The notes: generated by a model from the sequence alone, not told the origin. DNA of 64,000 bases from a bacterium (GCA_021847485.1 JAJZRA010000002.1:20078-84077); one strand, 5' to 3'. Shown: positions 29,524-35,500, numbered from the stretch's first letter. Made by a program: numbers and translations.

Positions 29524-32500
29524 TCAGATCGGGGTCGGGATCATGGCGTAGTCGCGCAGCTCGGCCACGAGGCTGTAGGACCCGTCGAAGGCCCACGCGT
29601 CGTAGAGGCTGCGGTTGTCCTCGGTGCGGCCCTTGAAGACGCCGTAGAGGAACAGCGTCTCCGGGTCCAGCGGCTCGTTATCGTAGGCTATCGCCGCGCC
29701 TATCGCGTCGGGCAGCGCCATCGTCCTGTCGAACTGGATGTCGCGCCAGCCGCAGGCCTGGAACAGCGCCTCGAACACGAGCGGGTGGAACACCAGCTTC
29801 GGGTGCTGGCCTTTCCAGAGCGGGGCCTGGGGACGCTTGAAGACCGCGAGCACCGAGTCCTTCTCGGCCGAGATCACGCCGTCGAGGACCTGGAAGCTGG
29901 GCCCGTGGAAGTAGGTCTTGTAGATCGTCGCGGCGTCGGCCTTGTACTTCCTGTTCTTGGGCAGGACGGGGCGCATGCCGGAGTTCCACGCCGAGGCCGG
30001 CGCCTCGGCGGCCGCCAGGCCCTTGAAGTGGTTCCTGGTCTGGCCCAGGCGCAGGCCCTTGGGGCTGACGAAGTCCGATTCGATGCGCACCTCGCAGCCT
30101 TCGCCGGAGCCGAGGGCCAGGGCCTTGACCCTGACGTCGGCGGGGCGGCCGCGCAGCAGCTTGATAGGCACCGCGAAGCGCACCCCGGTGAGCGCCTTCG
30201 GCGGCGCGCCGGTGACGGCCGCCGCGGCTTCCGCGAAGGTCTCCAGGCCCATCACGCCCGGCACGTAAGGCGTGCCGTTGATGGCGTGGTCGGCCAGGTA
30301 CGGGTCGCTCTCGAGCGAGAACTCCTTGGTGGCGGTCAGGCTCTCCCCCTTCAGCAGGTCCTCGGTCTTAGGCGCGAAGTGGAACCCGGTGGAGGCGGTG
30401 GCCGAGAAGTCCGGCTCGTAGAGCAGCTGTTTGTCCCAGTCCAGCTTGCCGAGGCTGCCGGAGAGGATGATCTCCGGCACCTTGCCGTAGGCGAGCTCGT
30501 CGAGCAGGGCCTGCATGCCCTCCTCGGGGTAGAGGAACTCCATCTCCTGGGACTTCAGGAAGGCCTCCACGCCGGGGCGGGCGCCCATGCCGATCTGCGC
30601 GTAGCCGGTCATGTCCACGCTGAGCGCGCGGACGCCGCGGTTATGCTGGCTGACGCAGAACTTGGCTATGTAGTCGGAAGCCGCCGCGTAGTCGGTCTGG
30701 CCGAGGTTGCCGAACTTGCCGGCGATGGACGAGGCCATCACCCAGAAGCCCTTCTCCTTGACCGCGCCGGACTTCCACATGTGGATAGCGGAGTCCGCCT
30801 TCACGTTGAAGATCAGGTTGAACTCCTCGATGGTCTTGTCCACCGCGAGCTTGGAGCGCTCCAGCCCCGCGAAGTGGACCAGGCCGTCGACCTGGCCGAA
30901 GTCGGCCTTGATGTTCTCCATGACCTGGTAGAGCATCGCGGTGTCGGTCAGGTCGCAGCGGTAGTAGCTGACCTTGACCCCGAGCGCCCGGATGGCCTCC
31001 ATGTTCTTGTGCATGTCGGCCGCGTCCTTGAGCCGGGTGAACTCCTTCTCGAGCATGGCCGGCGTCGGCTTGTCGTTGGCCGCCTTGATCTCGTTCCAGA
31101 GCTCGCCCATCTTGTAGGCCTTCAGCTCGGCCTCGCTCATCGAGGTCAGGCGCTTGGCCTTGTCGCTGATGTCGATGATGTCGAGGACGATGATGTTGGC
31201 CCGGTGCTGCTCGGCGAGCATCCGCGAGAACATCGCGCCGAGGCCGCGGCCGCCGCCGGTGACGACGACGTTGCGGTCCTCGAGCTGCGTGGTCAGGCGG
31301 GACTTGTCCAGCGCCTGCGGTTTGCCGACCATCGTCCAGCGCTTGCCGTCGGCGTAGCCGATCGCGAGGCGCTTGTCGGAGTACAGGATCTCGTAGAAGG
31401 TCTTCTGCACGATGACCTGGTTGGAGGAGCTGGGCTCGAAGTCCAGCAGCTTGACCGCGCTCTTCTCGAACTCCTTGCGCAGGCACAGCGTGGGCCCGAA
31501 GATCGCGCCGTAGACCGGGTCGTAGGCGTCGCGCGTGCGGTAGCCGAAGCCGCCGTCGAGCGTGGTCACCACGGCCATGAAGGTCGTGAAGCCCGCGTCC
31601 ACCTTGTTCAGGCCCGCCGCGAAGTACTTGGAGGCGATGAACAGGGGCAGCGCGTAGCGCTTGAGGTCGGCGAAGGCCGACGTCTCCTGCGAGAGCGACT
31701 TGACCATGCAGCCGGGCAGGTAGACCAGGCCCTGCGTGTCGGGATGGGCCGAGGCGAAGTCCGCCAGGGCCTTCTCCAGCGCCGGGATGTCCCGGAAGTC
31801 CACCGTTATGGAGTCCTTCACCTTGGTCTTGGCCGGCGTGAAGATATAGGAGTCCGCGCGGTGCTTGTTGAGCTCGGCGCGGAACGCCTTGGCCAGGTCC
31901 AGGTCCTCGGCGAAGATGACGACGGGGCGCTTAGGGGCCAGCTTCTTGATGACCTCCTGCTCCACCGGCGCCTGCACGATGGAAGGAACGTGGCGGATAT
32001 GGCGCCTGGGATGCTCGGCCTTGGCGGGCTTGGGCGCGGGCTGCGCGGCGGGCGCTTCCTGCGGGGCCGCGGCCAGGTCCAGCAGCTCGGGCTGCTGCGC
32101 CTTGGAGGCCTTCTTCTTGGCGGCGGGGCGGGCCGGCTCGGCGGCGGGCGGCGCCGCCGGCGCGGGGGCGGCCGTCCCTGCCTTGGCTTCCAACACGAAC
32201 CTGATGCAGTGGCGTATCGTCGGGTAGTCCTTCAGCGAGACGTTCTCCTGGCGCGGGATGCTGTAATGCTCGCGCATCGCGGCGAAGAGCTCGGCCTGCT
32301 TGACGGTGTCGATGCCGAGGTCGGCCTCCATGTCGAGGTCGAGCTCGAGCATGTCCTTGGGGTAGCCGGTCTTCTCGGCGATCATGTTGAGGATGTTCTC
32401 CCTGACGGCGTCCTCGTCCGCGCCGGAGGGCGCGGCCTGGGGCGCGGGGGCCGGGGCCGGCTTGGGCTCGGAGTAGTGCTGCGGCTCCGGCAGCGGGGCC

Positions 32501-35500
32501 TGCGCGGGCGCCGGCGCGCCGGCCACGGCCGCGGCGCCGCCTTTCGACTCGAGCACGAACTTGATGCAGTGGCGGATCGTCGGGTAGTCCTTCAGCGAGA
32601 CGTTCTCCTGGCGCGGGATGGCGTAGTGTTCGCGCATCGCGGCGAAGAGCTCGGCCTGCTTGACGGTGTCGATGCCGAGGTCGGCCTCCATGTCGAGGTC
32701 GAGTTCCAGCATGTCCTTGGGATAGCCGGTCTTCTCGGCGATCATGTTAAGGATGTTCTCGCGCACGGCGTCCTCGCTGACTCCGCCGGCGGCCGGGGCC
32801 GCGGCGGGCGCGGGGGCCGGGGCGGCTTTAGGCGCGGGCTGGGCGGCAGGGGCCGGCGCCGGGGCCGGCGCGGCGGCCACGGCCGCGGCGCCGCCTTTCG
32901 ACTCGAGCACGAACTTGATGCAGTGCCGGATGGTCGGGTAGTCCTTCAGCGACACGTTCTCCTGGCGCGGGATGCTGTAGTGCTCGCGCATCGCGGCGAA
33001 GAGCTCGGCCTGCTTGACGGTGTCGATGCCGAGGTCGGCCTCCATGTCGAGGTCGAGCTCCAGCATGTCCTTCGGGTAGCCGGTCTTCTCGGTGATCATC
33101 GCCAGGATGTTCTCGCGCACGGCGTCCTCGGACACGCCGCCGGCGGCCGGAGATGCGGCGGGAGCGGGAGCTGCGGCCTGGACTGGCGCCGGGGCGGCCT
33201 CGGGGGCCGCGGTCTGCCGGACCGGTGCGGGAGCGGCTGCAGCCGCGGAACCGCCTTTCGACTCGAGCACGAACTTTATGCAGTGGCGTATCGTCGGGTA
33301 GTCCTTCAGCGACACGTTCTCCTGGCGCGGTATCGAGTAATGCTCGCGCATCGCGGCGAAGAGCTCGGCCTGCTTGACGGTGTCGATGCCGAGGTCGGCC
33401 TCCATGTCGAGGTCGAGCTCGAGCATGTCCTTCGGGTAACCGGTCTTCTCGGTGATCATCGCCAGGATGTTCTCGCGCACGGCGTCCTCGGACACGCCGC
33501 CGGCGGCCGGCGCCGCGGCGGGCGCGGGAGCGGCGGCCTGGACGGGGGCCGGAGCGGCCTTGGGGGCCGCGGCGGGAGCTGCCGCCGCGGAACCGCCCTT
33601 GGACTCCAGCACGAACTTGATGCAGTGCCGGATCGTCGGGTAATCCTTCAGCGAGACGTTCTCCTGGCGCGGGATGCTATAGTGCTCGCGCATCGCGGCG
33701 AAGAGTTCGGCCTGCTTGACGGTGTCGATGCCGAGGTCGGCCTCCATGTCGAGGTCCAGTTCCAGCATCTCGCGCGGGTAGCCGGTCTTCTCGGTGATCA
33801 TCGCGAGGATGGTCTCCTTTACGGCTTCCTCGCCGAGGCCGGCCGGGGCGGCGTGTACTGCGGGCGCCGGGGCCGGTTTGGGCTCGGCGTAATGCTGCGT
33901 AGCGGCGGCGGCGACGGGGGCCGGCTTCGGCGCCGGCGCGGAGGCGACAGCGACAGGTTCTTTCGCGGGCGCGGCCGGGACGGCGGCCGGCTTGCCGGCA
34001 ACCTTCCTGTCTTTCACGCGCAGCGTGTTCTGCACCACTTCCAGCTCGGCGGCCGGGTCGCCGGACACCTCGCGGACCCAGGCGGTATAGCGGCCCTGGT
34101 CCTCGTAGCGGCTCTCCCCCGCCTTCCAGACGCGCTCGGTCATGGCCATCGCCATGTGCGAGCCGAAGCCGGCGGCGAAGCGGATCGCGTACTTCAGGTC
34201 GTAATGCCCGCCCTTCGACAGGTTGATGCCCGCGAGCTCCGGGTCCGGTTCCTTATAGTTGGCTATCGGCGGGATGATGCCGGTGTTCAGCGCGCGCACG
34301 GCGATGACGTCCTCGAGCGAGGCGCCCATCGTGTGGCCGGTGAAGCCCTTGACGTTGCTGACGACGACCTTGTCGGCGGCGTCGCCGAAGGCGCGGCGCA
34401 GGGCTTTCACCTCGGCGCTGGCGCTGCCGCCGCGGGCCGGGGTGTAGGTCTCGTGCGACATGAACATCGTGTACGGCGCGATCTCTTCCTTTTTGAGGCC
34501 GTAGAGGTTCTCCACCTTCTTGACGAAGTTGGACATGACGGAGGCCACGTGCTCGGTGTCGAGACGCGTGGCGTGGAAGGCGGAGTTGGCGGCCTCGGTA
34601 AGCAGCAGGCGGGCGAGCGGCTTCATGCCGCGGCCGCGGCAGAGGGTCTCGTCCTCGACTACCATGCCGACGGCGCCGGAACCCACTATCAGGCCGTGGC
34701 GGCGGCGGTCGAAAGGCAGCGCGGCCTCGCTGACGTTCTCCTTGGTGGTCGCGGTGCCGGAGGCCAGGAAGCCGGGCATCGTCCACTGCTGCACGGTCTC
34801 GTTGGTGATGTCGTCGGCGGCTATCACGACGACGCGCTTGCACTTGCCGGCGCGGATCCAGCTTTCGGCCAGGTGCACCGCCTGCGTGGTGGAGGCGCAG
34901 GCCGCGCTGACGTGCAGCGTCGGGCCCTTGGCGCCCACCCACTGGGCGAACTGGGAGTCGGCTATCGGGATCACCTTCAGCAGGAAGTTCTGGCTGAAGG
35001 AGTACGGGTCCTTGCCGGCGCCGGGTTCGTAACCGGCGAACTCGTTCTGCAGCCAGGCGCGCAGGCCGGCCTTGTCGGCCTCGCCCGGCAGCTTGTCCAC
35101 TATGCGGTGATAGACCTCCCACAGCTGGGCCGCGGTCTTGCCGGCGTACTTGTAATTGAAATAATGAGTGACCTCCTTAAGCAGCGACTCGGTCACCGGG
35201 AAGGCCGACGCGAACACCACGCCGGTCTCGGAGGCCACCGGCTCTGGCAGCGCCCACTTTTCCGGCAGGTAGCTGCCGGTGGTGGTCTTCTTGTAGTAGT
35301 GGATAAGCGGCAGGCCCGCGTCCTTCAGGGCCAGCACGCCGGCGGCTATGGCCATCTTGAACGTCGAGTCCAGCGCCTTGGCGACGGTGTTCGGCAGGCC
35401 GAACTCCTCCTGGATGTCCAGGCGGCCGGCGCGGGCCGACAGCTTGATGGCCTGGTCCACGGAGTCGATCTTCTCGATGCTGTGGTTGCCCGTCGGGGAT

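Follow-up and report, generated by a model that had tools for sequence, protein, structure and literature searches.

The window analysed here, a 64,000-nucleotide stretch of bacterial DNA (GCA_021847485.1 JAJZRA010000002.1:20078-84077), encodes a megasynthase with five tandem acyl carrier protein (ACP) units, each of which features a threonine at the position where a serine is expected to hold the 4'-phosphopantetheine arm. Phosphopantetheinyl-serine is among the most invariant features of fatty acid, polyketide and non-ribosomal peptide biochemistry and, to our knowledge, serine holds the arm in every carrier protein that has been studied. The threonine is shared by nearly all units of a widespread bacterial and archaeal family, and the synthase is accompanied by its own Sfp-type 4'-phosphopantetheinyl transferase (PPTase). 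Judged from sequence comparisons, it is quite probable that this dedicated PPTase attaches 4'-phosphopantetheine to the threonine of each unit.

The carrier units and their threonine codons

The synthase gene and its five carrier units are located as follows.

29524..38631, minus strand: megasynthase gene, 3035 aa (open reading frame (ORF) list and translation; Pfam domains)
33592..33840, minus strand: ACP unit 1, Thr1637, codon ACC at 33721-33723 (translation, Pfam PF00550)
33250..33498, minus strand: ACP unit 2, Thr1751, codon ACC at 33379-33381 (translation, Pfam, phmmer; the unit modelled with AlphaFold2)
32890..33138, minus strand: ACP unit 3, Thr1871, codon ACC at 33019-33021 (translation; protein identical to unit 2)
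32536..32784, minus strand: ACP unit 4, Thr1989, codon ACC at 32665-32667 (translation, Pfam PF00550)
32176..32424, minus strand: ACP unit 5, Thr2109, codon ACC at 32305-32307 (translation, Pfam PF00550)

All five units feature the motif DLGIDTVKQ, with Thr where Ser is expected. A preliminary description of this DNA had assigned the five codons and residue numbers, and both are exact when the codons are extracted and the residues are numbered from the ORF start. It had also given a repeat period of 342-360 nt, which agrees with spacings of 342, 360, 354 and 360 nt; Tandem Repeats Finder detects 4.6 copies with a 360-nt period. Pairwise comparison of the 249-nt units gives 12-34 nt differences (5-14%); between units 2 and 3 there are 12, none of which changes an amino acid. 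Because these differences are mostly synonymous, each of the five copies is under purifying selection in its own right, and an error that was recently copied along the array is not the explanation.

Position of the threonine in the carrier fold

Sequence alignments to solved ACPs and a structural model place the threonine in the column of the invariant serine. The four distinct unit sequences score 21.9-25.6 bits against PF00550, for which the gathering threshold is 20.8 bits, and the whole protein scores 82.2 bits. In a phmmer search against all PDB chains the Thr aligns with the Ser that carries the arm in five solved ACPs. The partners of DLGIDTVK are DLGVDSI and DLGIDSV of the PigH doublet ACP, DLDVDSL (2koo/2cnr), DLKADSL (2lol) and DLGADSL of the Plasmodium ACP (3gzl). 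An AlphaFold2 model of unit 2, built on 85 sequences, has a mean pLDDT of 89.3 and features helices at residues 4-19, 40-54 and 70-81. Since the modelled helix II spans 40-54, Thr40 is the first residue of this helix, which is the canonical attachment position. The top Foldseek matches of the model are all ACPs of the fatty acid synthase (FAS) type with TM values of 0.8-0.87. The units resemble canonical PF00550 carriers in the four-helix fold, the acidic DLGxD lead-in and the geometry of helix II, but they are unlike them in the defining residue: the hallmark of the superfamily, an invariant Ser at the start of helix II (D-S-L/I), is absent in all five units and is replaced by Thr. By fold and profile the five repeats are predicted to be genuine acyl carrier domains. 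The earlier claim that Thr occupies the invariant Ser column thus stands on both the alignments to solved ACPs and the modelled start of helix II.

An alignment of 282 near-full units of the family reveals a near-invariant block, E33-x-D35-L36-G37-x-D39-T40-x-K42-Q43, and no other conserved Ser column in the unit, which rules out another Ser as the true attachment site. For the serines of GVSED, HYSIP and NVSLK, already suspected not to be attachment sites, the family columns consist largely of gaps, of G/N/D and of K/Q/R, respectively. Two further threonines are frequent in these units, Thr19 of KTGYP (267/282) and Thr69 of YPT (261/282). Gln43 is found in 277/282 units with Thr at position 40, whereas V, A, I or S takes its place in 8 of the 10 Ser-type units. 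In unit 2 of the window, positions 40 and 43 are encoded at 33379-33381 and 33370-33372. The two residues are one helical turn apart on the same face of the helix, and their joint pattern hints at a functional coupling between Thr40 and Gln43.

Many full-length members of the family have no precomputed PF00550 call (for example P0286, P0296, P0297, P0308, P0309 and P0315). Single units of the window exceed the gathering threshold by no more than 1-5 bits. Ser-centred models seem to undercall these Thr-type carriers.

Distribution of the threonine across the family

A search with the ACP unit itself, by way of a 5-residue word index, yielded 120 short proteins, each of which contains DLG[IV]DTVK. 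Such an index makes an ACP-unit search favour Thr, and the family was therefore surveyed again with queries that exclude the ACPs. The 'standalone' Thr-type ACP proteins were considered as a separate family and rejected, as they proved to be pieces of megasynthase genes that are broken or contain frameshifts.

The first of the new queries, the ketoreductase (KR) and dehydratase (DH) region searched against one genome per species, gave 30 orthologous loci with 63-87% identity. These loci are mostly named Elusimicrobia or Elusimicrobiota, five are labelled only "bacterium", and Thr is present in 56/56 of their ACP motifs. The second ketosynthase (KS) was used in an exhaustive phmmer search against 1.84 billion cluster representatives, which gave 150 proteins with 34-67% identity; a count of carrier motifs in this set by regular expression found T 303 times and S 8 times. 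A KS-acyltransferase (AT)-KS query against 5.8 billion proteins added 110 further proteins, with Thr in 161/161 aligned ACP units. The pooled count at the profile hidden Markov model (HMM) column, which covers 526 units from 216 proteins, is 508 T (~97%), 10 S and 8 degenerate, and Thr is the sole residue at the attachment column in 203 of the 216 proteins. This is the survey of Ser versus Thr among homologues that the preliminary description had called for. The source names of the family include Elusimicrobia, Roseiflexus, Anaerolineales, Ardenticatenaceae, Terriglobales, Myxococcales, Spirochaetota, Thermoplasmata and Heimdallarchaeota. Four Thr codons are in use in the window, the 30 Elusimicrobia orthologs and distant relatives (ACC 62, ACG 5, ACA 2, ACT 1).

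The Thr trait is, on these surveys, a property of a whole widespread family and extends beyond the single gene of the window. Two earlier claims are borne out by these counts. The first, that the Thr codons are not sequencing errors, agrees with the 56 copies of the 30 loci, the four codons and the pooled family count; the second, that the residue is under selection, agrees with its retention throughout the family and with the mostly synonymous divergence of the window copies.

The contigs of metagenome-assembled genomes (MAGs) that carry orthologs mostly end inside or beside the ACP array (L002-L008, L010, L011, L013-L016, L018, L019, L021, L022, L025, L027, L029). Additionally, in some long-read assemblies the array is cut by frameshifts into gene calls of 60-146 aa (L031, 9250-10802; L032, 9569-11201). 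These contig breaks and frameshifts make the ACP copy numbers found in databases (1-6) unreliable.

Serine-type members and degenerate units

The 10 units with Ser at the same column belong to a handful of proteins, mostly from Heimdallarchaeota. The second KS was used for a neighbour-joining tree with the first KS (KS1) as root. In this tree the Ser-type members are scattered, each has Thr-type proteins as sisters, and Thr is also the residue of the deepest clade. On this tree, which was built without support values, Thr is ancestral to the family and Ser a rare, repeated reversion. One Heimdallarchaeota protein (P0169) has Ser in all its carriers. In a Heimdallarchaeum synthase cluster (P0414/P0417 among them) a single chain features carriers of the order Ser-Thr-Ser and ends in a fused PPTase, and this pattern is found in at least 8 assemblies, including contigs of 3.08 Mb and 3.33 Mb that belong to Candidatus Heimdallarchaeum aukensis and Ca. 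H. endolithica. Because Ser and Thr carriers are adjacent in one chain that is served by one cis PPTase, both residues can be argued to be loading sites, and among the sequence data this chain is the strongest available argument for that view.

Archaeal members with a PPTase fused at the C-terminus are found in Heimdallarchaeota (P0169; P0193/P0412/P0414/P0417; P0157/P0411) and Thermoplasmata (P0181/P0401/P0407). MAG contamination is an unlikely source of the archaeal synthases because they are encoded on the 3.08-Mb and 3.33-Mb contigs.

Some members contain ACP-like domains that are degenerate and lack a hydroxyl at the site (DLGIDPDK, DLGLDDE, DLDLDESK). They are located at the end of the array (P0242 1860-1939, P0262 2030-2075, P0264 1960-2043, P0269 1792-1849, P0411 ~1984), and the members that have them fall mostly in the deepest clade of the second-KS tree. 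These array-end domains are probably inactive relics of carriers.

The dedicated phosphopantetheinyl transferase

The gene that follows the synthase encodes the following protein.

28842..29510, minus strand: Sfp-type 4'-phosphopantetheinyl transferase, 222 aa (Pfam 4PPT_N and ACPS)

It starts 13 nt after the stop codon of the synthase, the distance originally given. The Pfam scores of 30.1 bits (4PPT_N) and 36.2 bits (ACPS) are both above the cutoffs, and the NCBIfam HetI equivalog is not matched by the PPTase (29.6 bits versus a cutoff of 370). In an alignment to Sfp and EntD the motifs SISHSG, GLDLEK and WAVKEAAMK are kept. Their conserved residues correspond to His90, Asp107, Glu109, Glu151 and Lys155 in Sfp numbering. 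The Sfp sequence in the alignment of several PPTases agrees with a separate Sfp alignment over residues 64-171. The protein resembles the Sfp-type enzymes Sfp, EntD, HetI and PfaE in the two-domain 4PPT_N and ACPS organization and in the conserved His, Asp, Glu and Lys motifs, but it is unlike them in its presumed substrate hydroxyl, which is that of Thr.

The association of PPTase and synthase is conserved. A PPTase ortholog lies directly downstream of the synthase in 30/30 Elusimicrobia loci, and the carriers linked to the window PPTase are of the Thr type only. In ~33/150 family representatives the PPTase is fused to the C-terminus of the synthase, and the carriers of these proteins are almost always Thr-only (examples of fusions are P0131, P0134, P0139, P0140, P0142, P0164, P0166, P0170, P0237 and P0261). 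The fusion is also present in Thermoplasmata members. In the case of the Ser-type P0169, the locus sequence ends just past the gene and its PPTase is the fused domain. A PPTase that is fused to a synthase with only Thr-type carriers has no other obvious substrate. Fungal FAS alpha subunits feature a cis-acting PPTase domain at the C-terminus, an arrangement that the fusion in about a fifth of the family representatives resembles.

Domain organization of the synthase

Pfam analysis of the whole 3035-aa protein determined the domain order KS - AT - KS2 - 5 x ACP - KR - PKS-type DH, with matches to ketoacyl-synt (twice), Acyl_transf_1, PP-binding, KR and PKS_DH_N. The domains other than the carriers are located as follows.

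37219..38622, minus strand: KS1, ~residues 4-471 (Pfam ketoacyl-synt, Ketoacyl-synt_C, KAsynt_C_assoc; DAACASS motif in the translation)
35923..36825, minus strand: acyltransferase, residues 603-903 (Pfam Acyl_transf_1, E 8e-43; NCBIfam fabD-like)
33946..35739, minus strand: second ketosynthase (KS2), ~residues 965-1562 (second Pfam ketoacyl-synt stretch)
30607..31269, minus strand: ketoreductase, residues 2455-2675 (Pfam KR, adh_short)
29527..30351, minus strand: polyketide synthase (PKS)-type dehydratase, residue 2761 to the C-terminus (Pfam PKS_DH_N)

The Pfam matches, the translation and the family alignment reveal catalytic motifs in KS1, AT, KS2, KR and DH. The motifs GHSLGE and HAFHS of the AT were read from the translation, and the assignment of substrates from AT motifs is established knowledge; on these two motifs the substrate class is judged to be malonyl. 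The catalytic triad of KS2 is conserved across the family, with the Cys of AACAS in 113/114, the His of SHETYTP in 114/114 and the His of FTGHT in 114/114 sequences. The enzyme features two potentially active KS domains rather than a KS/CLF pair, and the label 'CLF' for KS2 looks like a misnomer throughout the family. The translation of the DH contains an HxxxGxxxxP-like motif, LADHAINGTPYVPG. The Pfam scan found no Ser-type carrier anywhere in the synthase protein. With the motifs of all five enzymatic domains intact and no Ser-type carrier in the protein, the synthase needs a carrier.

Two long antisense ORFs overlie the synthase on the plus strand (29191-35730, 2179 aa; 35908-38706, 932 aa). 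They are almost certainly non-coding shadows, given the GC content of 65-69% and the clear domains on the sense strand.

Relation to known systems

By its architecture and its downstream PPTase the locus is classified as a "Type R secondary lipid synthase" and not as a canonical PUFA synthase. Type R was described by Shulse & Allen (2011, PMC3098273) as a pfaA homolog with the domain order KS-MAT-CLF-ACP(3-6)-KR followed by a PPTase gene, with Koribacter, Solibacter, Elusimicrobium minutum and Roseiflexus as hosts; the words serine and threonine are absent from that paper. The window synthase shares with Type R the domain order, the tandem ACPs and the PPTase immediately downstream, and the phyla of its closest homologs (Elusimicrobia, Roseiflexus, Terriglobales) are also those of the Type R hosts. 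MAGs with the names Elusimicrobium sp., Roseiflexus sp. and Terriglobales are among the best homologs; the comparison draws on such database proteins in place of the Type R reference strains' own sequences. The window synthase is unlike the Type R description in that its 'CLF' is a KS with a complete Cys-His-His triad and that a PKS-type DH is present at the C-terminus. Additionally, the family is wider here, including Spirochaetota, Myxococcales, Anaerolineae, Thermoplasmata and Heimdallarchaeota, and its PPTase is often fused.

The best-scoring curated model is PfaA (NCBIfam TIGR02813), with which the synthase has KS-MAT, tandem ACPs, KR and PKS-DH in common. Its ACP core is similar to the carrier region of PfaA, and one ACP unit of the window matches the ACP region of this model at E 7e-15. 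The synthase score of 958 bits is, however, below the curated cutoff of 1010.1. The window synthase is also unlike PfaA in the extra KS between the AT and the ACPs, in the lack of pfaB/C/D-like genes in the window, and in its carrier residue, which is Ser in PfaA.

A full-text search of open-access papers and preprints turned up no account of phosphopantetheine linked to Thr, nor any mention of the DTVK motif. The Type R family (since 2011), carrier domains and Sfp-type PPTases are known, and no description of a family-wide Thr at the attachment site together with a co-inherited or fused PPTase was found in this open-access literature.

Proposed loading of threonine and alternative explanations

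In the proposed explanation, the five repeats would be the acyl carriers of an iterative type I synthase, KS-AT-KS-ACP5-KR-DH. The 4'-phosphopantetheine arm would be attached to the Thr at the N-terminus of helix II, and this would apply nearly throughout the Type R family. The arm would be installed by the Sfp-type PPTase that accompanies the synthase, encoded immediately downstream as in the window or fused at the C-terminus, and this PPTase clade would accept Thr and also the smaller Ser. Thr would be kept for some advantage, the nature of which is speculative. The candidates are insulation from housekeeping AcpS-type transferases or from ACP phosphodiesterases, a phosphodiester linkage that is less prone to beta-elimination, and a restraint of the arm geometry. 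The fusion of PPTases to Thr-only synthases and the existence of mixed Ser/Thr synthases favour Thr loading. It is fairly likely that O-(4'-phosphopantetheinyl)-threonine occurs naturally as an ancient modification, widespread over at least eight bacterial and archaeal lineages, with a PPTase clade that, unlike AcpS, would accept a beta-branched hydroxyl.

Several points weigh against this explanation. The aligned PPTase sequences contain no signature for the acceptance of Thr, their motifs being ordinary Sfp-type, and in the alignment the PPTase domains of the Ser-type P0169 and its Thr-type sister P0170 look alike. The retention of Thr in ~97% of the units would be unexplained if Ser were fully equivalent. 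Additionally, the S36T variant of E. coli ACP "cannot be post-translationally modified by 4'-PP", is non-functional and serves as a standard non-modifiable 'dead' control (PMC3340395).

The same E. coli variant supports a different view, in which the Thr-type domains are never phosphopantetheinylated and act as scaffolds or in docking, while the chemistry takes place on CoA intermediates or on a separate Ser-type ACP served by the PPTase. The Pfam scores of the units, which are barely above the threshold, agree with this view, and the persistence of DLGIDPDK and DLGLDDE domains in some members indicates that inactive copies are possible. The motif around Thr is, however, the most conserved part of the unit, the opposite of the decay seen in the degenerate domains, and neither the window nor the fetched loci revealed a Ser-type carrier. 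The PPTase fusions include synthases that have no carriers other than Thr-type ones, and when the position changes, Ser turns up in exactly the same column. Tandem multiplication (1-6 copies) is moreover characteristic of functional carriers in enzymes of the PfaA kind (PMC3098273). A scaffold role is therefore considered unlikely. It is highly improbable that the arm is carried by a hydroxyl other than that of Thr40, namely Thr19, Thr69 or a residue of the Ala/Pro linkers. The strong conservation of Thr19 and Thr69 noted above would suit such a site, but ordinary ACPs, E. coli AcpP among them, commonly have a Thr as a structural cap ahead of helix IV. Neither residue is located at the N-terminus of helix II in the model, which is where PPTases act; the linkers are not conserved, and the occasional Ser substitutions fall at position 40.

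Thr40 could also bear another group, either a different CoA-derived arm or a regulatory phosphorylation that gates a minor Ser-independent route. Other CoA-derived arms are used by the ACPs of citrate lyase and malonate decarboxylase, but both Pfam and the motifs mark the linked enzyme as an ordinary Sfp-type PPTase, and no CitX/CitG/MdcG-like gene or kinase was seen beside the synthase in the window or in the distant loci L031-L033, which leaves this alternative a very small probability. The chance that the true residue is Ser and that Thr results from a sequencing, assembly or repeat-homogenisation artefact is practically nil. Tandem repeats are prone to misassembly and many MAG contigs break inside the array; however, Thr recurs across 30 independent Elusimicrobia assemblies and 216 proteins from many phyla, it is encoded by four different codons in the fetched loci, and the window copies differ at 5-14% of their nucleotides. 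The artefact reading is refuted by these assemblies, the codon variety, the 216-protein survey and the divergence of the copies. All of these alternatives are, by sequence analysis, less consistent than Thr loading with the conservation pattern and the PPTase fusions.

Genomic surroundings

The genes around the synthase and PPTase include the following.

27068..28705, minus strand: acyl-CoA carboxylase carboxyltransferase subunit, 545 aa (Pfam Carboxyl_trans, E 6e-179; NCBIfam mmdA-like, below cutoff)
38843-40468, minus strand: ORF upstream of the synthase, 541 aa (no Pfam match)
39101-39739, plus strand: ORF upstream of the synthase (no Pfam match)
39761-40474, plus strand: ORF upstream of the synthase (no Pfam match)

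The carboxyltransferase gene comes after the PPTase gene in the window, and its product probably supplies malonyl-CoA. In the distant loci L031, L032 and L033 a carboxyltransferase is also linked to the synthase, sometimes together with biotin carboxylase and BCCP. Upstream of the synthase in Anaerolineae and other distant members lies an acyl-CoA dehydrogenase, which in L031 is joined by ETF alpha/beta and an Fe-S/CCG protein. The flanking genes of these loci (L031 1-4237 and 13251-19719; L032 3085-4722 and 13123-17342; L033 1-2887) form a possible module for enoyl reduction in trans and for the supply of malonyl-CoA. Of this module only the carboxyltransferase is present in the window, where no candidate enoyl reductase (ER) was seen. 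Equivalents of pfaB/C/D (AT, KS-CLF-FabA DH, ER) were not found among the window ORFs scanned with Pfam. The gene content suggests a self-contained, malonyl-CoA-fed iterative line for a fatty-acyl or polyketide product.

The larger window ORFs that were scanned belong to housekeeping families (complex I/antiporter-like, cytochrome bd, fmt, rpe, trmD and others) or have no Pfam match. The synthase operon is flanked by a complex I/Mrp-like cluster on the minus strand (17995-26925), which features NuoH-like, 49-kDa subunit-like and 4L-like proteins and three Proton_antipo_M subunits, and by the cydAB cytochrome bd oxidase operon on the plus strand (40623-43031). The 1.9-kb stretch between the start of the synthase and the cytochrome bd operon contains the long ORFs listed above on both strands, none with a Pfam match. 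The ORF at 38843..40468 (minus strand) was considered as an acyl-CoA dehydrogenase like that of the Chloroflexi loci and rejected, as it has no similarity and no Pfam match. The GC content is flat across the synthase region, and the setting of the synthase is a core chromosomal context with no obvious island.

Implications

If Thr is the loaded residue, the 'invariant serine' rule for carriers has a family-wide exception and PPTases have a wider chemistry than has been assumed. Carrier domains of this kind would then be undercalled by annotation rules and HMM thresholds that expect Ser. The ACP/PPTase pairs would be naturally orthogonal to housekeeping phosphopantetheinylation and could be used for engineering. 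A fatty-acyl or polyketide synthase in Asgard archaea may also bear on the question of the lipid divide. For the family as a whole, loading of Thr would provide a concrete handle on the Type R synthases of Elusimicrobia, Chloroflexi, Acidobacteria, Myxococcota, Spirochaetota, Thermoplasmata and Heimdallarchaeota.

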